64,000 nt of DNA. It comes from Bacillota bacterium. GTDB lineage: Bacteria; Bacillota; Dethiobacteria; DTU022. Positions 5,579 to 62,156 of this stretch are shown one piece after another. The DNA lies in NCBI GenBank assembly GCA_011389985.1, contig JAABTH010000007.1:21769-85768 (forward strand), written 5' to 3'. The translations under genes were made by a program, and so were the position numbers. The notes beneath the pieces are model-generated. The model was not told where the DNA came from. It did not search any database and saw only the letters and a program-made list of their open reading frames with translations. Position 1 is the first letter of the stretch. Every line of letters starts with the position of its first letter.

Positions 5579-8500
5579 TTGTTGGATGTTAATAATTTTG
5601 ATGCCTTAAAAATTGGTCTGGCTTCATCTGAACAAATTAGAGCCTGGTCGAGAGGTGAAGTCAAGAAACCGGAAACAATCAATTACCGGACTCTCAAGCC
5701 GGAACGTGAAGGGCTCTTCTGTGAAAAAATATTCGGTCCGCAAAAAGACTGGGAATGCCATTGCGGCAAATACAAACGGGTTCGTTACCGCGGTATTGTT
5801 TGTGATCGCTGTGGCGTTGAGGTAACCAGGGCTAAGGTGCGCCGGGAGCGGATGGGCCATATTGAGCTGGCCGCTCCGGTATCTCACATCTGGTATTTTA
5901 AGGGAATTCCCAGCAGGATGGGCCTTCTGCTCGATATGTCGCCGCGGGCTCTTGAAAAAGTACTCTATTTTGCCGCTTATGTGGTAATTGATCCCGGTGA
6001 TACCTATTTAAGCAAGAAACAGCTTTTGACAGAAGTCGAATACCGCGAGTATTTCGAAAAATACCAGGCGCTTTTTAAAAGCAATAAAGGTTTCAAGGCC
6101 GAGATGGGTGCAGAAGCGGTTAAAAAACTATTAACCGGCCTTGATCTTGAAGAGATTGCTTTAGAATTACGTGAAGAGCTGGCTACATCAAGCGGACAGA
6201 AAAAAGTGCGCGCAATTCGCCGTCTTGAAGTGGTAGAGGCGTTCAGACAGTCTGGAAACGATCCATCCTGGATGATCCTGGATGCTATACCGGTAATTCC
6301 ACCCGACCTGCGGCCAATGGTTCAGCTGGACGGTGGACGGTTTGCAACATCAGATCTAAATGATTTATACAGAAGAGTAATTAACCGCAACAATCGTCTG
6401 AAGCGGCTTCTTGATCTTGGCGCTCCTGATATCATTGTCCGTAATGAAAAACGAATGCTGCAGGAAGCTGTTGATGCATTAATTGACAACGGCCGCCGCG
6501 GCCGCCCGGTAACCGGACCCGGTAATCGCCCCCTTAAGTCACTCAGTGACATGCTTAAAGGAAAACAGGGACGTTTCCGTCAGAACTTGCTTGGCAAGAG
6601 GGTTGACTATTCAGGTCGCTCGGTTATTGTTGTTGGTCCCGAGTTAAAACTTTACCAGTGCGGCTTACCGAAAGAGATGGCTCTTGAACTATTTAAACCC
6701 TTCGTGATGAAGCGTTTGGTCAGTGACGGCCTTGCTCATAATATAAAGAGCGCAAAACGCATGGTTGAAAAGGTGCGTCCCGAAGTATGGGATGTTCTTG
6801 AAGAAGTAATTAAAGATCACCCTGTGCTGCTCAACAGGGCGCCTACCCTGCACCGTCTTGGTATCCAGGCTTTTGAACCTGTCCTGGTCGAGGGGCGCGC
6901 AATTCAGATTCACCCTCTGGTTTGTTCGGCTTATAACGCTGACTTTGATGGCGACCAGATGGCCGTTCACGTGCCGCTTTCTGCTGAAGCCCAAACTGAA
7001 GCGCGTTTATTAATGCTATCAGCACATAATATACTTAATCCAAAAGAAGGGCGTCCGGTAACCACCCCTACCCAGGATATGGTGCTTGGTTGCTATTACC
7101 TTACCCTTGAAAAAGACGGGGTAAAAGGTGAAGGAAAAGTTTTCCCCGATACGGATGAAGCAGTAATGGCTTATGAACTCGGTTATCTTGATCTTCATGC
7201 GCGTATTCTTATCAGGGCTGCCGGTTTTAAAGGTCGGGATTTTGCGCGCCGTAAAAAATATATTTTAACTACTGCCGGCAAGGTAATCTTTAACGAGGTC
7301 TTTCCGAAAGACTTCCCCTTCATGAATAATGCTGACTTTAACGATTCTCTGCCTGAAAATACTTTTGTTCCAATTAAAGGCCTTGATCCGACACAGTTGC
7401 TTAAAAACCAGCCGCGGAATAAGGCGATAAAAAAAGATTTTCTGGCGGAACTTATTGCCCGCTGTTATCGCATGTATGGTAACACTAAGACGGCAGAAAT
7501 TTTAGACCAGGTTAAAAAACTCGGATTCCATTATGCTACCCGCGCCGGGGTTACTGTCGCGGTCAGCGATATTCTGGTTCCGGAGCAAAAACAGGAAATT
7601 CTCAAAGATGCTGAAGAAAAAGTGGAAACTACTGAAACTCAGTACTCACATGGCCTGATAACGGAAAGCGAACGTTATGATCGGGTCATCGAGGTTTGGG
7701 GCAAGGCAAAAGACCAGGTTACAAAGGCCCTGATGAGTGGTCTTGATGAGTTAAACCCCATCTACATGATGGCTCATTCAGGGGCCCGTGGTAATGAATC
7801 GCAGATAACGCAGCTTGCCGGAATGCGCGGTCTTATGGCCGACCCGACCGGTAGGATTATTGACGTTCCCATTAAGGCTAACTTCCGTGAGGGACTGACA
7901 GTTTTGGAGTACTTCATTTCAACGCACGGCGCCCGGAAAGGGCTCGCCGATACGGCACTAAAAACTGCCGACTCAGGTTACCTTACCCGTCGTCTTGTCG
8001 ATGTTGTTCAGGATGTTATTGTCCGTGAAGATGATTGCGGCACCGGTCAGTCTATCGGATTAAGCGAATTTCTCGAAAGCGATGAGCCACTTGAGGAAGC
8101 AGTAAATCGTTTGATTGGTCGCTATACCATGGAGCCGGTTTATCACCCCGAAACAGATGAGGTTGTAATACCGGCTGATACCCTAATTACGGAAGAACTG
8201 GCTGTGAAAGTTGCTAAACTTAATATTACCGAAGTGCGATTCCGCTCGGTGCTTACCTGTAAAACACGTCACGGAGTTTGTGTCAAGTGTTATGGACGCG
8301 ATCTCGCTAACGGAAAGATTGTTAATGTAGGCGAAGCCGTCGGCATTATAGCCGCCCAGTCAATTGGTGAACCAGGCACTCAGCTGACAATGCGTACTTT
8401 CCACACCGGCGGTGTGGCCGGCGACGATATTACCCAGGGTTTACCCAGGGTTGAAGAGCTTTTTGAGGCTCGTAAACCTAAGGGACAGTCGCTGATTGCT

Positions 8501-13968: not shown

Positions 13969-14073
13969 GTAATTTAAGTTAAGTAGCGATGAAGTAGAAG
14001 GTTGCCGGCAAAGCAGTCGGGGAATTTTTACGGAGCAGCTCTGATTTAATCAGGCGATAAGGAGGATTTGTTC

Positions 14074-35891: not shown

Positions 35892-36809
35892 TCATTTCCT
35901 TGCGCATTCTCCGCCGCGTCCTGTAACTGTCTCTAAGGCATGGTCAAGCACGGGATTTATCACCGCGAAACATTCAGTTACTGCCTTGGGGCTTCCGGGC
36001 AGGTTTATAATTAATGTGTTGCCGCTAATTCCGGCCAGGGCTCTAGATAACATTGCTTTTGCTGTAACAACTGATGTTTCGCGGCGTATTGCTTCCGGTA
36101 TTCCCGGTACTAGGCGGTCGATTACATCGAGGGTTGCCTCTGGAGTAACATCGCGTGGGCTTAAACCAGTGCCGCCAGTGGTGAAAACAGCATCTATACC
36201 TTTGCCTGCCATATTACGCATGACCTTGGCCAGAGCTACTCTGTCGTCAGGCACAATTACATAATCAACCACATCGCCGAAAGGAAGCAACAGTTCAGTA
36301 ATAGCAGGGCCGCTTAAGTCGTCTCTTTCGCCTTTGGCTCCCTTATCACTGGCGGTGATAACACCAAATTTATATGCATGTTTAATTACGAGCTTGTCGC
36401 CAACTTTAATTTTACCGCCGGTTAAAACCTCAGTAAAAATGCCTTCTTTGGGCATTACGCAGTCGCCGGCCTGGTAATAAATTGCACAGCGAGTATGGCA
36501 TTCTTTGCCAATTTGGGTGACTCTTATAATTGAATTACTACCGGCCTGAAGTCTGGTGCCTAGAGGCAAATTGACCAGGTCAATTCCCCTGGTTGTAAGA
36601 TTTTCAGCGAAATCGCCGGGTCCGACATCAAGTCCTTTGGTTGTCATTTTGGCAATGCTTTCTTCTGCCAAAAGGCTTATCTGACGGTGTCCAAAACCGG
36701 CATGAGCGTCGTTTTCAAGCCCCTGTCTTTTTATCAAAAGGCTTTCACCTACATTGGTTTTTCGTTGACCTTTTTCGGGGCTGGTGCAAACTGCAATAAT
36801 TTCAGCCAT
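35892..36809 (-). CDS. mog: MOSC domain fused to MogA/MoaB-type molybdopterin adenylyltransferase
   Basis: N-terminal ~140-aa MOSC beta-barrel. C-terminal MogA/MoaB fold with a GGTG motif. Confidence 0.8.
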   Translation of the reverse strand: MAEIIAVCTSPEKGQRKTNVGESLLIKRQGLENDAHAGFGHRQISLLAEESIAKMTTKGLDVGPGDFAENLTTRGIDLVNLPLGTRLQAGSNSIIRVTQIGKECHTRCAIYYQAGDCVMPKEGIFTEVLTGGKIKVGDKLVIKHAYKFGVITASDKGAKGERDDLSGPAITELLLPFGDVVDYVIVPDDRVALAKVMRNMAGKGIDAVFTTGGTGLSPRDVTPEATLDVIDRLVPGIPEAIRRETSVVTAKAMLSRALAGISGNTLIINLPGSPKAVTECFAVINPVLDHALETVTGRGGECARK

Positions 36810-37807
36810 TATAGCTGCTCACGGCAGTAATGACCGGAGCGCCCTCCTTTCTTTTCAACCAGACGTATATTCTGTATAATCATATTTTTGTCGACGGCTT
36901 TACACATATCATAGATAGTAAGGGCGGCAATACTCACACCGGTCAAAGCTTCCATTTCAACACCGGTCTGTCCGGTTAACTTTACCCTCACTCCTATTTC
37001 AATTTTCGGCTGCGGAGTGTCAACAGGCTCGAAATCCACTTCAACACCTGAAACTCCAAGTGGATGGGCCATAGGTATCAGCCGTCCGGTTTCTTTTACG
37101 GCCATTATTGCGGCAACCTGGGCTACCCCGAGAACATCGCCTTTGCTCATACTTCCTGCTTTGACCTTAGTGAGGGTTTCAGCAGACATTAAGATTTCTC
37201 CGCGGGCATATGCTTCCCGTAAAGTTTGGTCTTTGGTTGAGACATCAACCATGCGCGGTCTGCCTCTTGAATCAAAGTGAGTTAATTTATCGGGACCAAC
37301 CTGGTTGGTCTTTTTATTTTCAAAATACTTAGCCATAATAAAATTTGCCAGAGCCTCGCTATCTTCAATATTAATAACTGGAATATCAATCTGCAGATCG
37401 AGTCTGTCGCTTACAACAGCAATTGTATTTTCATTCAAGAGTGGATCAAAGTTAATATTACTGCGCAGCACTTCAATTTTGGGCCTTCTGCTACTTTTAT
37501 TTCCTTCTACTATTAAGAGGTCAAAGTCTTTAAGTATTGATGCCGCAGCCTCAATGCCGCTTTTACCCTTTTCAGATCCTGTTAAAACATAGTTCTCAGG
37601 GGTAGTAACTCCTGCTATATCGGCACCGGCCCTGGCAAAACGCCAGCTGTCTTTTCCAGGCAGGTCAAAATCATAATGCTGCAGATTTCCTTTTAGGGCA
37701 GCTACGAGCAGACCTTTTTCTTTCAAAGCCGGTAGAAGCTTTTCCACTATAGTCGTTTTTCCAGTCCCTGATTGAGCAGCAACAAGGTGAATAATTACAG
37801 GCGGCAT
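36809..37807 (-). CDS. MobB (molybdopterin-guanine dinucleotide biosynthesis adaptor) fused to MoaC (cyclic pyranopterin monophosphate synthase)
   Basis: N-terminal P-loop AAQSGTGKTT (MobB). C-terminal MoaC core. It overlaps the downstream gene by 1 nt. Confidence 0.8.
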   Translation of the reverse strand: MPPVIIHLVAAQSGTGKTTIVEKLLPALKEKGLLVAALKGNLQHYDFDLPGKDSWRFARAGADIAGVTTPENYVLTGSEKGKSGIEAAASILKDFDLLIVEGNKSSRRPKIEVLRSNINFDPLLNENTIAVVSDRLDLQIDIPVINIEDSEALANFIMAKYFENKKTNQVGPDKLTHFDSRGRPRMVDVSTKDQTLREAYARGEILMSAETLTKVKAGSMSKGDVLGVAQVAAIMAVKETGRLIPMAHPLGVSGVEVDFEPVDTPQPKIEIGVRVKLTGQTGVEMEALTGVSIAALTIYDMCKAVDKNMIIQNIRLVEKKGGRSGHYCREQL

Positions 37808-37873: not shown

Positions 37874-38869
37874 TTATCCTCCCGTTTTTGACATGGAGCG
37901 CATTGACCCCGGTTTTAACGATCCGCATTTGCCATCGCAACCCATCTGATGTTCAACAGGTTTGTTATTCAGCACTTCCTGAATCAACTTTTTTAAAGCT
38001 TTGTGATCGTCAATGAAAGGTTTTACCGATTTTTCGTCCTGCCAATAGAGGCAGGCTTTTAAGTTGCCTTCTGCAGTAAGTCGCAGTCGGTTACAGGTAT
38101 CACAAAAGTGTTTGCTGATCGGATGAATAAGTCCGATTGTGCCCTGCCCGCCGGGAATAGTATATGATTCTGCAGGTCCGGCACCGCCGGGAAGAGGAAC
38201 CGGGGTTAGTGGAAGCCCTGCTTTCGCCGCAATTTCCTCAATATAGGTAAGGGGCAGATAGTGATCTCTGTAACCGCAGTCATGATCTCCAATGGGCATG
38301 TATTCAATGAAACGCACATGCAGCGGTTTACTCCTCGCAAGCTCTAAAAAATCTAGTATTTCGTCATCATTTATTCCTTTCATCAAAACAACATTTAATT
38401 TAACGGGATGCAGGTTAAACTCGATTGCAGTGTTAATTCCACTTAATGCCTGTTCCAGCTTGCCGCAGCGTGTAATTTTATTAAATTTTTCCGGTTGCAT
38501 TGAATCAAGGCTGATATTGACACGTTTTAGCCCGGCTTGTTTAAGCTTTGCAGCATATTTATCCAGGAGAATTCCGTTTGTTGTCATGGCCAGATCGTTA
38601 ATCCCCGGTATGGCTGTTATGCTCCCGATTAGGTCTACTACACCCTTACGGACCAGGGGCTCACCGCCGGTTACCCTGATTTTACTAATTCCAAGCTCGG
38701 CTCCGGCACGGACAACCTTGAGGATCTCTTCATAACTTAATATATTCTCATGAGTAATCTGTTCGATACCTTCTTCTCCCATACAGTATATGCAGCGAAG
38801 GTTACATCGATCAGTAACTGAAATTCTTAAATAATCATGTTTCCTGCCCTGTCCGTCAATTAATGGCAT
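37874..38869 (-). CDS. moaA: GTP 3',8-cyclase MoaA (radical SAM)
   Basis: CNLRCIYC radical-SAM cluster motif near the N-terminus. A C-terminal second Cys cluster is typical of MoaA. Confidence 0.9.
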   Translation of the reverse strand: MPLIDGQGRKHDYLRISVTDRCNLRCIYCMGEEGIEQITHENILSYEEILKVVRAGAELGISKIRVTGGEPLVRKGVVDLIGSITAIPGINDLAMTTNGILLDKYAAKLKQAGLKRVNISLDSMQPEKFNKITRCGKLEQALSGINTAIEFNLHPVKLNVVLMKGINDDEILDFLELARSKPLHVRFIEYMPIGDHDCGYRDHYLPLTYIEEIAAKAGLPLTPVPLPGGAGPAESYTIPGGQGTIGLIHPISKHFCDTCNRLRLTAEGNLKACLYWQDEKSVKPFIDDHKALKKLIQEVLNNKPVEHQMGCDGKCGSLKPGSMRSMSKTGG

Positions 38870-40792: not shown

Positions 40793-42019
40793 CTAATCCC
40801 ATAAAATAATCTCTACGGGGGTGCCTTCAATCAAGCCTTCGCTTTCAGCCGGAATAACCAGCAAACCATCAGCTTCAGCCAGTGTTCGCAGCATTCCTGA
40901 TCTTCCGAAAACCGGGATAGCCGTAACACCCTTATCATCAGGCTCCAAGATAACTCTTACATATTCAGTACGCCCTGAACGTGAGGAAATATTACGGCTT
41001 AATACAGCCCTGACGGTTGGGCTGAATAATTTGTCTTTATGTCCTGCCAGGCGGTGTATAATTGCTTTGCCGAATATAGCGAATATATTCAGAGCAGAAA
41101 CAGGGTGGCCCGGCAAACCAAGTACCGGCTTTACGTTGCAGTTAGCAATTAATGTAGGTTTACCTGGTTGAATGGCAATACCTTCAACCAGAAGGCCTGG
41201 TTTGCCCAGTTCGTTCATGGTCGCGGCAGTGAAATCCCGGCTGCCGACAGAACTGCCGCCTGAAAAAACCAGGAAATCAACTTTTTCAAGCATTGATTTG
41301 CTTTTTTCTAAAAAAATATCAAATATGTCCGGAAGAATTCCTCCATATACAATGTCGGCTTCCAACTGTGAAGCCAGGTAAAACAGTGCCGGTGCATTGC
41401 TGTCGCGGATCTGTCCAGGTTTGAGACTGGCGCTATGGTAATCAACAAGTTCGTCGCCGCTGGAAAAAAAACCTATTTTAGGGCGGCGATAAACATTTAC
41501 ACTGGTTATGCCAAGGGAAGCCAGCATGCCTATTTCCGGCGCACGAAGACGATGGTTGCTGGAAAGAACCGCGGTGCCTTTTTTTATGTCTTCTCCCCGG
41601 TGTATTACATTTTCACCGGGGGCAACCTGGCGGAAACTTTGAATCAGTGAACCGGTTGCTTCAGTGTCTTCTATCATGATGACGGCATCGGATCCTTCAG
41701 GCAGCATCCCTCCTGTATGAACCAGACAGCACTGTCCTTCACGGATCTGCGGCGCTGTTTCACCCATGAGAACTTCACCTATGCACTCAAGCATAGCCGG
41801 TATACCTTCTCCTGAGCCAAATGTGTCACGGGCAAATACTGCATACCCGTCAACAGTTGATCGATCAAAACTAGGTACATCTTCAGTAGCGCAGATAGTT
41901 TCAGCCAGAGAGCGGCCCCCTGATTTTTCAAGAAGCACTTCTTCCGGTTCAAGTGGCAAAAAGTTATCGTTGATCAGTTTAAAAACATCTTCAGGGGCTG
42001 TGACCCTCATAAGTTTCAT
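40793..42019 (-). CDS. moeA: Molybdopterin molybdotransferase MoeA (second paralogue)
   Basis: MoeA core MKLMRV... The ATG at 42019 sits 5 nt after GAGGTG. The ORF-track TTG at 42022 is one codon upstream. Confidence 0.88.
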   Translation of the reverse strand: MKLMRVTAPEDVFKLINDNFLPLEPEEVLLEKSGGRSLAETICATEDVPSFDRSTVDGYAVFARDTFGSGEGIPAMLECIGEVLMGETAPQIREGQCCLVHTGGMLPEGSDAVIMIEDTEATGSLIQSFRQVAPGENVIHRGEDIKKGTAVLSSNHRLRAPEIGMLASLGITSVNVYRRPKIGFFSSGDELVDYHSASLKPGQIRDSNAPALFYLASQLEADIVYGGILPDIFDIFLEKSKSMLEKVDFLVFSGGSSVGSRDFTAATMNELGKPGLLVEGIAIQPGKPTLIANCNVKPVLGLPGHPVSALNIFAIFGKAIIHRLAGHKDKLFSPTVRAVLSRNISSRSGRTEYVRVILEPDDKGVTAIPVFGRSGMLRTLAEADGLLVIPAESEGLIEGTPVEIILWD

Positions 42020-42034
42020 CAAAACACCTCGGTT

Positions 42035-42215
42035 TATTACAAATTAGCTGCAATTGAAAAGCCACCCCTCCAGATACATGGAAACGTGGCCTGTCGGCAT
42101 AGTCTCCTTTCCAATTACGGGAGGCAGGAGGATTTCTCCCCCAGCCCAGGCCTGTCACCATAGCGGGCTTAATGCTGTAGGTAAAAAGGCTCGGAGGCTG
42201 CTATTAATATACAGC
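42035..42215 (-). promoter_or_regulatory. Candidate molybdenum-cofactor (Moco) riboswitch in the leader of the moeA-moeA-moaA-mobB/moaC-mog operon
   Basis: The minus-strand transcript reads ...AGCAGCCUCCGAGCC...GACAGGCCUGGGCUGGGGGAGAAAUCCUCCUGCCUCCCG...GGAAAGGAGACUAUGCCGACAGGCC...CUGGAGGGGUGG. Distal segments CCUCC/GGAGG can close a P1 stem. GACAGGCC occurs twice. An extended -10 (TGTTATAAT) lies just upstream. It sits ahead of Moco-biosynthesis genes, which this riboswitch class is reported to control. Confidence 0.5.
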
Positions 42216-42351
42216 AGTATTATAACATATATTGTTGATTTCGGCATTTCAATACAGCAATTTGTTTAAACAAACTGCCGGCATCGGGAGCGTGAAACTC
42301 AAGGACAGGATTGTTGTGAAAGAAAATGTGCTGGTAATGATCGAAAGTGTG

Positions 42352-42888
42352 CTAGTAAGGATAAAGAATTAAACCCAGAATAGCGCCCAGGCCAATGAAA
42401 TAAAGCGGGCTGATTCTAAGAAGCAGGCTTAATAACAATACCAGTCCGAATACAAACGCAGTGGGCAGATCGATAATTGCATTATGGCCAAGGGTATATG
42501 AAGCCAGAAGGATTAGGGCAATCAGGGCGGAGCGTAAGCCGTTTAAAAAACTTTCAGTCTTGGGATTTTGGATTACCCTGAACAATATGCGAGATAAAAG
42601 AAGCAGCAAAACGAGTGATGGAGTGATTACTCCCAGCGAAGCAACAAGTGATCCTGTAACCCCAACCAGCCGGTAACCGATAAATGTAGCAGCGTTGATT
42701 GACACAGGGCCTGGAGTCATTTCGGCAACTGCAATGATATCAAGAAATTCAGCGGGGCTGAGCCAACTATGAACATTTATAACTTCGGCTTCCATTAGGG
42801 GAATCATCGCATATCCTCCACCAATGGTGAAAAGTCCAACCTTTAGGAAGGACCAATAAAGTGATAAAAGAATATTAACCATCGGCAT
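42352..42888 (-). CDS. chrA: Short-chain CHR-family (chromate-ion-transporter-like) membrane protein, downstream half of a pair
   Basis: 178-aa, 6-TM-like protein. The GGGYAMIPLM motif is shared with ChrA. Confidence 0.8.
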   Translation of the reverse strand: MPMVNILLSLYWSFLKVGLFTIGGGYAMIPLMEAEVINVHSWLSPAEFLDIIAVAEMTPGPVSINAATFIGYRLVGVTGSLVASLGVITPSLVLLLLLSRILFRVIQNPKTESFLNGLRSALIALILLASYTLGHNAIIDLPTAFVFGLVLLLSLLLRISPLYFIGLGAILGLILYPY

Positions 42889-43447
42889 TACTCCTGCAGA
42901 TAATTAAACCGGCCAGCCCGCCCGCAACCAAAATCAGAATCGGGTGAAGTTGGGTAATAATTGCTATGGCAAGTAAGGCTGCGCACAGTAATATACCCCG
43001 CCAACCGTGCAATATGTCACGGCCCATTTTAACGGCGGCAAATGCGATTAGAGCTACCACGGCGGGCCTCAGACCATAAAAAGCCGCCTGAACATAAATA
43101 TTATCGTGCATTATGGGATAAAGCCAGGCGGCAATTATTAATAAAATAATTACTGACGGAGCTGTAACGCCAAGGGCTGCAACCAGACCGCCGGCAGTAC
43201 CGCGCAGTCTGATGCCAATCTGAATAGCGCTGTTCAGGGCAAGCTGTCCGGGCATCCCCTGGGTGATAATCAGTATGTCAGAAAAAACAGACTGGCTTAC
43301 CCACTTTCTTTTGTATACTACTTCTTGTTGAACAACCGGCAATATGGCATAGCCACCACCAAAAGTAAAAGCGCCCACTTTAAAAAAGGTGAGCATAATT
43401 GTCAATAGCGATTCTTTTTTATCAGTTGATGACTCAAGGGCCGGCAA
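42875..43447 (-). CDS. chrA: Short-chain CHR-family (chromate-ion-transporter-like) membrane protein, upstream half of a pair
   Basis: 190 aa with a GGGYAILPVV motif. It overlaps its partner by 14 nt. Confidence 0.8.
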   Translation of the reverse strand: MPALESSTDKKESLLTIMLTFFKVGAFTFGGGYAILPVVQQEVVYKRKWVSQSVFSDILIITQGMPGQLALNSAIQIGIRLRGTAGGLVAALGVTAPSVIILLIIAAWLYPIMHDNIYVQAAFYGLRPAVVALIAFAAVKMGRDILHGWRGILLCAALLAIAIITQLHPILILVAGGLAGLIICRSNADG

Positions 43448-43485
43448 CAGGTTGTCCTCACTTTCTTTTTCTTTTAAAAAGATGT

Positions 43486-43983
43486 TTAAAGCTGCTTTTC
43501 ATTGTTATTATTGCTTAGGGACTCATCTTTAGGATCAAGTTCCTCAAAAACGCGTATAATCGATTGAAGTGAAACTATGAGGTTTTCTCTTTCAGCCGGG
43601 TCTAAATGCTGAGCCAGGTTATTAAACCTGTAGGAGCGCCTTTCAAAAACGAGTCGTGAAAGTTGTCGGCCATATGATGTTAGAGTAACCCTTACCACCC
43701 GGCGGTCTTTATCATCACCACGTCGTTTAACCAGGTTAAGGTTAACCAGCCTATTTACAAGTCGTGTTGCTGCGCTTTCAGCCAGGTATATTTCCGAGCT
43801 TAACCTACCCATTGTCAGATCATCATGAATATAGAGGACCAGAAGTGCATTGACTTGGCTCGGAGTGATCCCCAGTCCGGTTAGCTCACGGTTTTCCTCT
43901 GCGCTGAGGTAATGCATGATTTTAGGAAAAATAGCCTGGATGGCTGAAGTAAATCTTTCAGGATCTCTGTAATCACTGCTCAT
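43486..43983 (-). CDS. MarR-family transcriptional regulator
   Basis: 165 aa with a winged-helix MarR core (TPSQVNALLVL...DRRVVRVTLT). Confidence 0.85.
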   Translation of the reverse strand: MSSDYRDPERFTSAIQAIFPKIMHYLSAEENRELTGLGITPSQVNALLVLYIHDDLTMGRLSSEIYLAESAATRLVNRLVNLNLVKRRGDDKDRRVVRVTLTSYGRQLSRLVFERRSYRFNNLAQHLDPAERENLIVSLQSIIRVFEELDPKDESLSNNNNEKQL

Positions 43984-44212: not shown

Positions 44213-45592
44213 ATGCTTTCAATAATTGGTATTGCTCCCCATCCGCCGATCATTATTCCCGACATTGGCCGCGGCGAATTAAGCAAAGTGAGCAAAACTA
44301 TAGACGGTATGCAGCAATTAAGTCAAAAAATTAAAGATAAATCACCGGAACTGTTAATTTTCATCACTCCACATGGGAATGTATTAAGAGAAGGTCCTGC
44401 TCTGTTAACCGAAAAGTATCTTACCGGTAATTTTGGACGCTTTGGTTTTCCGGACCTAAAAATGGAATTTGAAACTGACCAAAAATTGATTGATATCCTG
44501 CGAGAAGAAACATCTTCAGAACCAATTCAGCCGGTTTTCCTTGACAATGAAAATCATGCTATTAAGAATGATAATGCTTTAGATCACGGTGTTATGGTGC
44601 CTCTTTATTACCTGAAGAAGGCCGGAGTGAATCTGCCAGGTTTACATATAACATTTAGCTTTGACGCAAACAGAGATTTGTACAGTTTTGGTACTGCCCT
44701 CAGAAAGTCTATCGATAAAAGAGGTTTAAATACTGCAATATTAGCCAGCGGCGATCTTTCGCATCGCCTTATTCCGGGCGCCCCGGCCGGCTATACACCA
44801 CGCGGGGTTAAGTATGATCAATTATTGATAGAATTGCTTCGTGAGGGAAAGGTAGAAGAAGTATTAAATATTGATCCGCATTTAGTCGAAGATGCGGGTG
44901 AATGCGGTCTGCGTTCTTTCATAATTGCCCTTGGCACAATCGACGGTCAGGAATTCAGTACCGATATTATTTCATACGAAGGTCCTTTTGGGGTTGGTTA
45001 TCTGGTTGCCTCAATCGAACCGTTAAATAATAAAGGCGATACTTTGGCAAACGATGATAGTGAGAAGGTAAAGAGTCTTCCTGAACCGAATCCGGCATAT
45101 TTCGCCCGCCAGGTTTTGGAGAGCTACTACAGATATGGTCATATTCAAGAGCCTCCGGGCGAGTTGTCTTCACATTACCTGGATAAGGCAGGAGTCTTTG
45201 TTTCACTTAAAAAACAAGGAAGGTTGCGCGGTTGCATAGGGACATTTGAACCGGTCAGAAAAAACCTGGCCGCAGAAATTACCGCCAATGCTGTAAGTGC
45301 GGCAACAAGAGATCCCCGGTTTTCACCTGTTCGTGCAGACGAATTGCCTGAACTAGATGTATCTGTTGATCTTTTAAGCCCATTGGAAAAGGTTAGCAGT
45401 GAAAGTGAGCTTAATCCGAAAATATATGGGGTGTTTATTCGCAGCGGTCACCGCACTGGTCTTCTACTGCCGGATCTCGAAGGAGTAGATACTGTTGAAG
45501 AACAGCTTGGTATTGTCCGTCAGAAAGCAGGAATAAGACCTGCTGAAACGGCTGAATTATTCCGCTTTAAGGTTAGTCGCTACAGGGAATAA
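44213..45592 (+). CDS. AmmeMemoRadiSam system fusion protein: Memo/LigB-superfamily (class III extradiol-dioxygenase-like) domain plus AMMECR1 domain
   Basis: 459 aa. The N-terminal ~270 aa have the Memo/LigB-like pattern (IGIAPHPPIIIPD..., ITPHGNV). The C-terminal ~190 aa are clear AMMECR1 (GRLRGCIGTFEP...SAATRDPRFSPV...GLLLP). Confidence 0.8.
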   Translation: MLSIIGIAPHPPIIIPDIGRGELSKVSKTIDGMQQLSQKIKDKSPELLIFITPHGNVLREGPALLTEKYLTGNFGRFGFPDLKMEFETDQKLIDILREETSSEPIQPVFLDNENHAIKNDNALDHGVMVPLYYLKKAGVNLPGLHITFSFDANRDLYSFGTALRKSIDKRGLNTAILASGDLSHRLIPGAPAGYTPRGVKYDQLLIELLREGKVEEVLNIDPHLVEDAGECGLRSFIIALGTIDGQEFSTDIISYEGPFGVGYLVASIEPLNNKGDTLANDDSEKVKSLPEPNPAYFARQVLESYYRYGHIQEPPGELSSHYLDKAGVFVSLKKQGRLRGCIGTFEPVRKNLAAEITANAVSAATRDPRFSPVRADELPELDVSVDLLSPLEKVSSESELNPKIYGVFIRSGHRTGLLLPDLEGVDTVEEQLGIVRQKAGIRPAETAELFRFKVSRYRE

Positions 45593-45640
45593 ATCTGGGA
45601 TAAGTTTGACGGATTCTATTGTTTCGTGAGGAGAGATAAT

Positions 45641-46654
45641 TTGCACAAAGCGCTCTATTACCAGTATGAAGAAAATAAAATTCGCTGCCTTCTTTGTCCG
45701 AAATATTGCCTTCTTGGAGAAGGTCAGGTTGGGGTATGTGGAGTGCGGCTGGTTGAAGAAGGAGAACTCTATACGGCTAATTATAGCTGCCTGGCTGCTG
45801 CAAACTGGGATCCTGTGGAAAAGAAACCCCTGTATCATTATTATCCGGGTTATAAAATATTATCGCTTGGAACTATAGGTTGTAACTTTCACTGTACATT
45901 CTGTCAGAATTGGTCTCTGGCCCGTGGCAAGCAGGAACAGTGCGTAGAGATGATCAAGCCAGCGGCCGTTCTGGCCATGCTTGAACGCGAAGGAGACCCG
46001 GAACAGGTCCTGGGTGTAGCTTACACTTATAATGAACCGATGATCTGGTATGAGTTTGTTCTTGAAACTGCAAAACTTTTACACAGACATGGTTACAGGA
46101 ACGTGCTTGTTACCAACGGCTATGTAAATCCTGAACCGCTGAACGAACTTTTGCCTTATGTTGATGCCATGAATATTGATGTTAAAGGTTTTTCTGACCG
46201 TTTTTACCGTAAGTACTGTAAAGGTGAGAAAGAGCCGGTGATCAAAACAGTTGAAACTGCAGTAAAACACTGTCATGTAGAAATAACCTGCTTACTGATT
46301 CCAACCCTAAATGACGATATTGCCGAGCAGGAAGAACTGGCCCGTTGGATGGCCGGCCTTAGCCCGGATCTTGTTTTACATTATTCGCGTTATTTCCCGC
46401 AATACAAACTTGAATTGCCACCAACTCCTATTAGTGTCATGGAAGAATCAGTTAAAACCGCCAGGAAATATTTACGTTATGTCTACGCCGGTAATATTGA
46501 TTTGCCTGGAGCTTCTGATACATCCTGTCCGTATTGTAATAACCTGCTTATTTCCCGAAGCGGTTACAAGACGACGATTACGGGTGTTAAAGATGGGCAC
46601 TGTAACAATTGTGGCAATGCGGTAAAAATAATTATGCCTGAAGTGAGCGCTTAA
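45641..46654 (+). CDS. AmmeMemoRadiSam system radical SAM enzyme
   Basis: CNFHCTFC (CxxxCxxC) radical-SAM motif plus an N-terminal CLLCPKYC...C..C cluster typical of this system's SAM partner. The TTG at 45641 sits 5 nt after GAGGAGAG. The ORF-track GTG at 45626 is embedded in the SD. Confidence 0.8.
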   Translation: MHKALYYQYEENKIRCLLCPKYCLLGEGQVGVCGVRLVEEGELYTANYSCLAAANWDPVEKKPLYHYYPGYKILSLGTIGCNFHCTFCQNWSLARGKQEQCVEMIKPAAVLAMLEREGDPEQVLGVAYTYNEPMIWYEFVLETAKLLHRHGYRNVLVTNGYVNPEPLNELLPYVDAMNIDVKGFSDRFYRKYCKGEKEPVIKTVETAVKHCHVEITCLLIPTLNDDIAEQEELARWMAGLSPDLVLHYSRYFPQYKLELPPTPISVMEESVKTARKYLRYVYAGNIDLPGASDTSCPYCNNLLISRSGYKTTITGVKDGHCNNCGNAVKIIMPEVSA

Positions 46655-59850: not shown

Positions 59851-60216
59851 ATGCGGGGCAAATCAGATGAAAACCTTCGCTGTGATTGCAGTATTGTCCA
59901 CCAGGATATTGTTAAAAAAGTTCAGGGAAAAATGCCGCCGGAAGAAATGCTTTATGATCTTGCCGAGCTGTTCAAGGTTTTTGGAGACTCAACCAGGATA
60001 AAAATCATCTGGGCTTTATTCGAAGAAGAGATGTGTGTATGCGACATCGCTTATCTGCTGAATATGACTCAATCGGCGATATCTCACCAACTGAGGGTGC
60101 TCAAGCAGGCACGCCTTGTGAAACCACGGCGCGATGGTAAGAATGTCTATTATTCACTTGATGATCAGCACATAGAAGAAATATTTAACCAGGGTTTAAA
60201 ACACATTAATGAATGA
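59851..60216 (+). CDS. cadC: ArsR/SmtB-family metalloregulator, CadC-like
   Basis: Winged HTH (DSTRIKIIWAL...ISHQLRVLKQARLV) with an alpha-3 CVC metal site plus an N-terminal CDC pair. Confidence 0.85.
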   Translation: MRGKSDENLRCDCSIVHQDIVKKVQGKMPPEEMLYDLAELFKVFGDSTRIKIIWALFEEEMCVCDIAYLLNMTQSAISHQLRVLKQARLVKPRRDGKNVYYSLDDQHIEEIFNQGLKHINE

Positions 60217-62156
60217 AAAGCATCCCGGAGGATGATCTGCACATGAGTAAAAATAGCAATACAAGTTGTTCTGTTAATGGTAGTTGTGAATGTGATCTAC
60301 CGGTAAGCATCATAAATTTACGAAATCCACAGCAGATTATTTTATATCTGGCCGGGGTTTTATTATTTATCGCCGGAATAGTATTTTCACCCGGAGGATA
60401 TCTTGAGTTCAGCCTTTTTGCACTCTCATATCTTATATTTGGCGGAGGGGTGTTGCTCAGAGCTGTCCGTAACATTGCAAAAGGCAGAGTATTTGACGAA
60501 AACTTTCTGATGGCAATTGCTACGCTGGGTGCATTTGCTATTGGTGAGTACCCCGAAGGAGTAGCAGTCATGGTGTTTTACCAAATTGGCGAGCTGCTGC
60601 AGGATAGCGCTGTGGGGCGATCACGAAGATCAATCGAACAACTCATGGATATCCGCCCTGATTATGCCAACCTAAAAGAAGGTGAGCAAACTCGAAAAGT
60701 TTCTCCCGAGCAGGTAGCTGTCGGATCATTTATTATCATACGTCCCGGTGAGAAAGTTCCCCTTGATGGTTTTATCGTTGAAGGCAGCTCTGCCCTCGAT
60801 CTATCTGCGCTCACAGGAGAATCGCTTCCGCGTGAGGTCGAAACCGGTGACGAGGTGCTCTCCGGTTCAGTGAATAAAACAGGATTGCTTAGTGTCAGGG
60901 TCACCAGGGAATACATGGACTCCACGGTGAGCCGGATATTATCACTTGTGGAAAATGCATCCTCCCGTAAAGCCCGTACAGAGCAATTTATTACTCGTTT
61001 TGCGGCTTATTACACTCCTGTTGTAGTTATAGCAGCATTATTTCTGGCGTTCATACCACCACTTGTTATTCCCGGTCAGGAATTCCAGGTATGGACATAC
61101 AGAGCGTTGGTCTTTCTCGTTATATCCTGCCCCTGTGCGCTGGTCATATCAATTCCGTTAGGATTTTTTGGCGGAATTGGAGGAGCTTCGCGAAAAGGTA
61201 TCCTGGTCAAGGGCGGCAATTACCTGGAAGCATTAAGTCATGTCGAAACAGTCATTTTTGATAAAACTGGAACGCTTACCCATGGAAAATTTTCTGTTAA
61301 TAAAATCGAACCATCTGGTGGCTACAGCACAGGTGAGTTGCTGAAGCTTGGCGCAGCTGCTGCTTATCACTCCAACCATCCTGTTTCAGTATCAGTTCTG
61401 CAGGCATACGATGAACAGATAGATGAAAAAAGCTTAAAGAATTATGAAGAGATACCCGGTCGGGGGGTAAAGGTTAGCTATGAAGGCAAAAAGATTCTTA
61501 TGGGTAATGGGAAGATGTTATCTGAAAATGGAGTGGAAGCATTAAATGATTCTGATCATAAAACCCGTGTTCATATTGCTCTTGATGGCCGCTATGCCGG
61601 CAGTATCGTAGTTGCTGATCAAATCAGGGAGGATGCAGAGTCAGCTATCAGGCAGCTGAGGGATTTAGGAGTAAAGAAGATAGTATTATTGAGTGGAGAT
61701 AAAAAAAATGTGGCTGATGAAGTCGGTCGCAGGCTTAAACTTGATCAGGTTTATGCCGAACTTTTACCGGATCAAAAAGTAGGAATAATCGAAGAACTGG
61801 AAAGGCAAAGCACCACCGGCAAGAAACTGGTCTTTGTTGGTGATGGTATTAATGATGCACCTTCACTTGCCAGGGCAGAAATCGGGGTTGCCATGGGTGG
61901 GGTGGCATCTGATGCGGCTATAGAAGCAGCCGATGTGGTTTTAATGACCGGCCAGCCCTCTAAGCTTGCCGAAGCAATTAGAGTTGCCATGAAAACCCGG
62001 ACTATAGTTATACAGAATATAGCTCTTGCCCTTGGGGTTAAAGGAATAGTGATGAGTTTGGGTCTATTCGGCCTGGCTTCAATGTGGGGGGCTGTTTTTG
62101 CCGATGTCGGTGTGGCTCTGTTGGCGGTACTCAATGCTATGAGAGCAATGAAATAA
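60213..62156 (+). CDS. cadA: P1B-type heavy-metal (Cd/Zn/Pb-type) translocating ATPase
   Basis: CPC in TM6 (SCPCALV), the DKTGTLT phosphorylation site, and a GDGINDAP hinge. Its start overlaps the cadC stop in an ATGA arrangement. A Cys-rich N-terminus (CSVNGSCEC) stands in place of a canonical GMxCxxC HMA domain. Confidence 0.88.
   Translation: MKSIPEDDLHMSKNSNTSCSVNGSCECDLPVSIINLRNPQQIILYLAGVLLFIAGIVFSPGGYLEFSLFALSYLIFGGGVLLRAVRNIAKGRVFDENFLMAIATLGAFAIGEYPEGVAVMVFYQIGELLQDSAVGRSRRSIEQLMDIRPDYANLKEGEQTRKVSPEQVAVGSFIIIRPGEKVPLDGFIVEGSSALDLSALTGESLPREVETGDEVLSGSVNKTGLLSVRVTREYMDSTVSRILSLVENASSRKARTEQFITRFAAYYTPVVVIAALFLAFIPPLVIPGQEFQVWTYRALVFLVISCPCALVISIPLGFFGGIGGASRKGILVKGGNYLEALSHVETVIFDKTGTLTHGKFSVNKIEPSGGYSTGELLKLGAAAAYHSNHPVSVSVLQAYDEQIDEKSLKNYEEIPGRGVKVSYEGKKILMGNGKMLSENGVEALNDSDHKTRVHIALDGRYAGSIVVADQIREDAESAIRQLRDLGVKKIVLLSGDKKNVADEVGRRLKLDQVYAELLPDQKVGIIEELERQSTTGKKLVFVGDGINDAPSLARAEIGVAMGGVASDAAIEAADVVLMTGQPSKLAEAIRVAMKTRTIVIQNIALALGVKGIVMSLGLFGLASMWGAVFADVGVALLAVLNAMRAMK

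Follow-up and report, generated by a model that had tools for sequence, protein, structure and literature searches.

A P3-lacking Moco RNA motif as a probable feedback switch of a pterin-cofactor operon in uncultured Bacillota

The leader of a five-gene pterin-cofactor operon in a Bacillota bacterium carries a P3-lacking riboswitch of the RF01055 family, which very probably serves the operon as a feedback OFF switch. The DNA analyzed was a stretch of 64,000 nucleotides, referred to here as the window, in which a sequence-only reading had called a candidate Moco riboswitch in front of two tandem moeA genes. We found that the leader belongs to the RNA family in question, that both its aptamer and a downstream terminator covary across orthologous leaders, that its promoter is conserved, and that the genes of the operon serve pterin-cofactor synthesis. 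In the mechanism that we propose, an antiterminator would compete with the terminator, and the ligand would be a metal-pterin cofactor, somewhat more probably the tungsten form (Tuco). The coordinates of the features are listed in Table 1.

Table 1 Features of the riboswitch leader and of the operon in the window.
Feature	Coordinates	Strand	Basis or description
Extended -10 promoter TGTTATAAT	42227..42219 (TATAAT 42224..42219)	-	direct reading
Aptamer, RF01055, P3-lacking	42088..42208	-	covariance model and alignment
P1	42198..42193 with 42107..42102	-	GCCUCC with GGAGAC
P2	42190..42180 with 42159..42150	-	aptamer helix
P2a	42176..42173 with 42165..42162	-	aptamer helix
P4	42147..42137 with 42132..42122; GAAA loop 42136..42133	-	G-rich hairpin
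P5	42121..42120 with 42112..42111	-	aptamer helix
Antiterminator segment (predicted)	42079..42108	-	inferred from folding
Intrinsic terminator	42052..42091	-	hairpin and U-tract
Terminator 5' arm GGCCACGUUUCCA	42091..42079	-	loop UGUAUC
Terminator 3' arm UGGAGGGGUGGCU	42072..42060	-
Terminator U-tract UUUUCAAUU	42060..42052	-
Shine-Dalgarno GAGGUG and moeA ATG	42030..42025; 42019..42017	-	direct reading
moeA, 408 aa, first operon gene	40793..42019	-	MoeA_N, MoCF_biosynth, MoeA_C (Pfam)
moeA with C-terminal PBP_like, 632 aa	38872..40770	-	PF12727, 232 bits, and MoeA domains
moaA (GTP 3',8-cyclase)	37874..38869	-	TIGR02666, 375 bits
mobB-moaC fusion	36809..37807	-	Pfam and NCBIfam
MOSC-mogA/moaB fusion, last operon gene	35892..36809	-	Pfam and NCBIfam

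Aptamer structure and its conservation in orthologous leaders

A covariance-model search with Rfam 15, the check that the sequence-only reading had proposed, bore out its riboswitch call. The Moco RNA motif (RF01055, molybdenum/tungsten riboswitch aptamer) matched the minus strand at 42208..42088 with 68.6 bits and an E value of 2e-14, well above the gathering score of 36 bits. The match spanned model positions 1–135, which is the full model without truncation. Between 30 and 64 kb, no RNA family other than RF01055 matched at E ≤ 1. A second copy of the riboswitch was found neither with RF01055 at E ≤ 1 (30–64 kb) nor with a model built from the leaders of the clade.

All 15 P3 columns of the model were deleted in the alignment of the window RNA to RF01055. 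The junction between P2 and P4 was only one or two nucleotides long, here and in all 62 aligned leaders of relatives. All core nucleotides of the window aptamer were intact, and the core was otherwise identical to the RF01055 consensus. The single-stranded core and the P5 mini-hairpin were present in the form GCCUCCC-N6-GGAAAGGAG. The window leader is therefore a genuine and ordinary member of the Moco RNA motif, showing every defining structural feature of a motif in which P3 is optional. Judged by its sequence, it belongs to the P3-lacking subtype, and this absence of P3 places it in the group that the literature assigns to Tuco by correlation only (PMC2408646, PMC11725836).

Direct reading of positions 42400..41900 located every string listed in the sequence-only reading on the minus strand, within a leader of ~190 nt as that reading had described; CCUCCGAGCC was at 42197..42188 and GGAAAGGAG at 42112..42104. 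The G-rich internal hairpin that it had noticed is P4 (42147..42122). A long-range P1 does close the aptamer (CUCC with GGAG), but CUGGAGGGG (42073..42065), which had been offered as a second partner of P1, was rejected in that role as it belongs to the 3' arm of the terminator. The repeat of GACAGGCC is likewise present in the window (42156..42149 and 42095..42088), but the duplication is not conserved and was discarded as a functional motif; the relatives L009 and L012, for example, have AAGGCC and AAGCC at its two sites.

Close homologues of the window MoeA number in the hundreds and come from uncultured Bacillota under the labels Dethiobacteria or 'Syntrophomonadaceae'. With this protein, an alignment-based scan of reference genomes yielded 80 loci of relatives, and the same aptamer was located directly upstream of moeA in 63 of them. 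In ~60 loci, the distance from the CYCCGAR motif to GGAAAGGAG was 82–86 nt, indicating that P3 is lacking there as well. A model built from the leader alignment scored the window RNA at 116.9 bits and found, besides a single copy ahead of moeA in 63 loci, two divergent copies. P3 was absent from all ~64 copies in the clade.

The comparison of orthologous leaders, which had also been suggested, showed a conserved aptamer in which P2, P2a, and P4 have undergone compensatory changes. We aligned 62 leaders by MAFFT without fitting the alignment to any structure, and then counted the Rfam structure on it. Paired cells amounted to 83%, versus at most 59% when the partners were slid. A total of 21 pairs changed on both sides, and none of 500 shuffles reached the observed values. 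This covariation was carried by P2, P2a, and P4, with 89% of P2 cells paired (both-sided change in 8 of 10 pairs) and 90% of P4 cells paired (6 of 11 pairs). The inner four pairs of P1 (C-G, U-A, C-G, C-G) were near-invariant, being kept in 61–62 of the 62 leaders, and its outermost pair covaried (GC in 22, AU in 10, and UA in 4 leaders). We dropped the outer extension that the Rfam model gives to P1, as only 34% of its cells were paired in the clade. The P2 tetraloop receptor (CCUA...UAUGG, conserved as CCT and TATGG) and the P4 GAAA loop were invariant or at least 90% conserved. CCTCCC and GGAAAGGAG were identical in all 62 leaders, and CCGA was also part of the conserved core.

Not all relatives retained the aptamer. 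The leaders upstream of moeA in four anaerobic-digester MAGs (L043, L050, L063, and L064) gave no RF01055 match at E ≤ 1, and their sequences may represent either decayed or strongly reduced aptamer variants. Two of these leaders (L063 and L064) kept a terminator-like hairpin and pieces of the 3' half of the aptamer. In another relative (L069), a P3-less aptamer at 6742-6864 on the minus strand (72.7 bits with the clade model) was situated ~100 nt from moeA and pointed away from it. Downstream of this divergent aptamer, no ORF of at least 60 aa was found on its strand before the convergent nadD-yqeK-rsfS cluster.

Promoter, terminator, and the proposed switch

The extended -10 promoter that the sequence-only reading had recognized, TGTTATAAT (42227..42219 on the minus strand), recurs in the relatives. 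Scanning the orthologous leaders for TGnTATAAT with at most one mismatch in the hexamer, we found it in 57 of 61, where it precedes the CYCCGA motif by 15–37 nt. The sequence comparison thus points to a real and conserved promoter, from which transcription would start at ~42213–42211. At the other end of the leader, GAGGTG followed by ATG was kept in the orthologues, with a varying distance from the terminator.

Downstream of the aptamer, the leader forms a hairpin with a folding energy of -18 to -21 kcal/mol (z-score -2.65), followed by a U-tract. In the 62 leaders, 92% of the cells of this stem were paired, 8 of 13 pairs showed compensatory changes, and 0 of 500 shuffles reached the observed values for most measures; the tail had a median of six U across leaders. 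Together, the covarying stem and the U-rich tail identify the hairpin as an intrinsic terminator. A simple consensus scan for terminators missed it because of an internal G.G mismatch.

The 5' arm of the terminator could also pair with the aptamer. In the window, AGGAGAC at 42108..42102, which includes the 3' strand of P1, is complementary to GUUUCCA at 42085..42079, and the predicted helix is extended by GCC at 42098..42096 with GGC at 42091..42089. Throughout the clade, the 5' arm reads GUUUYCY, a complement of the invariant AGGAGAC. When the nascent transcript of the window was cut before the 3' arm of the terminator, this antiterminator was the minimum free energy (MFE) structure, with a local hairpin of -12.7 kcal/mol. 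The pairing was also found in the MFE structure of 60 of the 62 leaders cut at the same point. It had 84% of its cells paired, with no excess over shuffles; covariation cannot be scored for this helix because one of its strands is the invariant aptamer core. We infer from these folds that the antiterminator forms. For the full-length RNA without ligand, the aptamer plus terminator was computed to be ~13 kcal/mol more stable than the antiterminator state, so the switch would be kinetic, or else the antiterminator model would be incomplete and involve additional contacts.

In the proposed mechanism, transcription would begin at the conserved extended -10 promoter. A plentiful metal-pterin cofactor would bind the aptamer and lock P1 (GCCUCC with GGAGAC). 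With P1 locked, the hairpin of GGCCACGUUUCCA and UGGAGGGGUGGCU and its U-tract would form, and transcription would end before moeA. Under cofactor shortage, AGGAGAC of the P1 3' strand would pair with GUUUCCA of the terminator 5' arm as an antiterminator, and RNA polymerase would read through. In this read-through state, CUGGAGGGG might pair with the freed 5' strand of P1. An aptamer-stabilized terminator with a competing antiterminator is the standard design of an OFF switch and agrees with the proposal made for terminator-type members in E. limosum (PMC11725836).

Translational control, with the 3' part of the leader sequestering the moeA Shine-Dalgarno sequence GAGGUG as in the E. coli moaA riboswitch, is very unlikely here, even though such sequestration was the mode of action put forward by the sequence-only reading. 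The MFE structure of the whole leader does pair the P1 5' strand GCCUC with GAGGU of the Shine-Dalgarno sequence, and anti-Shine-Dalgarno sequences of the CCUCC type occur three times in the aptamer. However, this pairing uses a strand of P1, so that the Shine-Dalgarno sequence would be hidden only without ligand, and a biosynthesis operon would thus be regulated in the wrong direction. The pairing is also not conserved, with ACUCC in most orthologues. Moreover, the covarying terminator and its U-tract lie between the aptamer and the Shine-Dalgarno sequence, which lies ~22 nt beyond the U-tract in the window, and the spacer between terminator and Shine-Dalgarno sequence ranges from ~10 to ~230 nt among orthologues with neither its length nor its sequence conserved. 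That the leader resembles a riboswitch by chance, or is the decayed relic of one and without function, is less probable still, with a probability close to nil. Decay does occur in the lineage, as shown by the four distant relatives above (L043, L050, L063, and L064) that lost a recognizable aptamer, but the window RNA matches RF01055 over the full length of the model at E 2e-14, its core nucleotides are intact, compensatory covariation extends across the 62 leaders, and promoter and terminator are both conserved. Most likely, the leader works by an early stop of transcription and not by hiding its ribosome-binding site. The sequence-only reading had thus spotted a real riboswitch, and its working mode is corrected here from Shine-Dalgarno masking to termination.

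Operon content and the candidate ligand

Pfam and NCBIfam searches supported the operon content that had been read from the translations, namely moeA, moeA-PBP_like, moaA, mobB-moaC, and MOSC-mogA/moaB. The gene after MOSC-mogA is convergent, encoding a PcrB family protein on the plus strand, and no consensus terminator was found after MOSC-mogA at the end of the operon. Between 31 and 64 kb, the annotated ORFs included no moaD, moaE, or mobA, in agreement with their reported local absence, and no tupA, wtpA, modA, or recognizable W/Mo enzyme. The fusions had been described as unusual, but NCBI family models exist for such fusions, with moeA-PBP matching NF011068 at 720 bits against a cut-off of 534. 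The tandem arrangement of moeA genes has been published as well (PMC11733289). The pair of moeA and moeA-PBP was present in every one of the 71 loci of sufficient length. The closest solved MoeA structures to the N-terminal part of the window MoeA-PBP were archaeal (1uz5, 1xi8, and 1wu2), and the contiguous bacterial MoeA/MoeA-PBP pair has been described as archaeal-type and as probably connected with tungsten (Megrian et al. 2025, PMC11733289).

The last two genes of the operon, mobB-moaC and MOSC-mogA, overlap at 36809. Their halves match the MoaC-MOSC and MoaC-MoaB fusion families (PRK14499 / PRK03604), so the same domains are joined here in a different order.

Previous studies provide several links between P3-less Moco RNAs and tungsten. 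Of 176 Moco RNAs, 58 were without P3, and this class tracked tungsten-cofactor metabolism, a correlation for which the authors named exceptions (Regulski et al. 2008, PMC2408646). The P3-containing Moco RNA of E. coli did not respond to tungstate (PMC2408646). P3-less members in E. limosum have been treated as Tuco riboswitches, and their terminator-type operons were derepressed under W limitation (PMC11725836). On the protein side, TupA accompanies bacterial MoeA-PBP in 86% of cases, and MoeA-PBP has been proposed to act in W insertion (Megrian et al. 2025, PMC11733289), and a 2026 study placed MobB with a W-specific MoeA1 in Methylorubrum (PMC13197769). The literature searched contained no report of an RF01055 member that binds Moco or Tuco directly in vitro.

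Relatives of the window locus carry tungstate-transporter-like genes under the same type of riboswitch. In L065 and L066, TupA/TupB-like genes are located inside the riboswitch-controlled operon, and in L060 a divergent copy of the riboswitch precedes a TupA/TupB-like operon. In a Peptococcaceae MAG (L059, 8241-11571), MoeA-PBP is directly followed, within the operon under riboswitch control, by a TupB-like permease and an ABC ATPase. A separate TupA-like binding protein was not found within 7 kb to either side and may be encoded elsewhere. TupA was the sole NCBIfam family matched by the TupA-like proteins of the relatives, at ~240 bits, which is below the equivalog cut-off of 400.

We lean toward the tungsten form (Tuco) as the ligand because the aptamer lacks P3, because the operon includes MoeA-PBP, a fusion found together with TupA, and because TupA/TupB-like genes of relatives are placed under this type of riboswitch. 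It is rather unlikely, on the evidence at hand, that the same aptamer and terminator respond to Moco or to either metal form, with P3 loss being a lineage-specific variant that has no effect on specificity. In favor of this alternative, both cofactors require moaA, moaC, mogA, and moeA, no W-specific gene occurs among the ORFs annotated from 31 to 64 kb, the aptamer core shows no other departure from the family consensus, and the link between P3 and Tuco is correlative, with stated exceptions (PMC2408646). Yet P3 is absent from every one of the ~64 clade copies, the operon includes the TupA-associated MoeA-PBP fusion (PMC11733289), four relatives (L059, L060, L065, and L066) place TupA/TupB-like genes under the same riboswitch type, and the P3-less examples of E. 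limosum respond to W limitation (PMC11725836). Going further with the Tuco assignment, we tentatively suggest, from sequence comparison, that this leader and its ~60 orthologues are tungsten-cofactor-specific riboswitches over a dedicated W-insertion module, although we would not yet call this the expected outcome. Such a module could consist of the archaeal-type MoeA, MoeA-PBP, and MobB, with TupABC embedded in some relatives. If true, the clade would be a natural test bed for the discrimination of W and Mo by P3-less Moco RNAs, because two independent, correlative predictors of tungsten use, P3 loss and the MoeA-PBP fusion, coincide in it.

The closest known systems are the P3-lacking Moco RNAs of Clostridia and Deltaproteobacteria (PMC2408646). 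They share with the window RNA P1, P2 with its tetraloop receptor, P4 with its GAAA loop, and P5, as well as the core CCGAG, GCCUCCC, and GGAAAGGAG, the lack of P3, and a location upstream of pterin-cofactor biosynthesis genes. There is no structural difference between them; the window instance comes from an uncultured Dethiobacteria-like lineage and heads a moeA/moeA-PBP operon. The Tuco riboswitches of E. limosum fetABC1 and focA (PMC11725836) also have a P3-less aptamer followed by a hairpin and poly-U terminator, and an antiterminator that overlaps an aptamer helix, as predicted for the window RNA. The E. limosum examples, which were derepressed in vivo under limiting W, control iron transport and a FocA-like channel, in contrast to the window RNA, which is known from its sequence and leads cofactor-biosynthesis genes. 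The E. coli moaA riboswitch (PMC2408646) belongs to the same family and controls cofactor biosynthesis genes with the OFF logic that we propose for the window leader. It differs in having P3, in its lack of response to tungstate, and in a ribosome-binding site within the P1 region that makes it translational, whereas the window RNA lacks P3 and has an intrinsic terminator. The bacterial archaeal-type MoeA2/MoeA1-PBP tandem (PMC11733289) likewise consists of a contiguous moeA pair in which the second gene carries a cytoplasmic PBP-like domain as a fusion. Riboswitches are not mentioned in that paper, while here the pair is directly under a P3-less riboswitch in ~60 genomes.

The RNA family, the P3-less subtype, the type of terminator platform, the gene fusions, and the tandem moeA pair are therefore already known. 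What is new is only the instance in an uncultured lineage and the physical coupling of the P3-less riboswitch with the MoeA-PBP pair in ~60 genomes. Most of the genomes with this coupling came from soda-lake and other anoxic sediments, and in some relatives it includes TupABC-like transporters. Biologically, this is a routine annotation to which the coupling adds modest value: it strengthens two tungsten hypotheses that had each been proposed separately, for the P3-less subtype and for the MoeA-PBP fusion, and it identifies compact constructs for tests of W-versus-Mo selectivity.

Genes surrounding the operon

Directly upstream of the riboswitch promoter, a MarR gene and two half-size genes of the ChrA (chromate-transporter) family occupy 42352-43983 on the minus strand. 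The order MarR-ChrA-ChrA-riboswitch-moeA was found in 38 of the 80 loci, and MarR alone was kept in some. Because chromate, molybdate, and tungstate resemble one another as oxyanions, these genes could conceivably be tied to W/Mo homeostasis, and one possibility is that they represent an unrecognized tungstate/molybdate homeostasis transporter and not a chromate pump.

Further upstream, the stretch 44213-46654 on the plus strand encodes a 459-aa fusion of a LigB/Memo-like domain with AMMECR1 and, after it, a radical-SAM protein. These genes resemble the AmmeMemoRadiSam trio, with two members fused here. An ArsR-family regulator followed by a P-type (E1-E2) ATPase at 59851-62156 on the plus strand is a typical metal-efflux pair, apparently unrelated to the riboswitch. 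The remainder of the window is an rpoBC and ribosomal-protein region. There, an S10-Clostridia ribosomal-protein leader (RF03136) at 13981-14060 on the plus strand scored 36.4 bits, just over the gathering score of 35.1; it precedes the S10 ribosomal-protein operon and is consistent with a Bacillota host.
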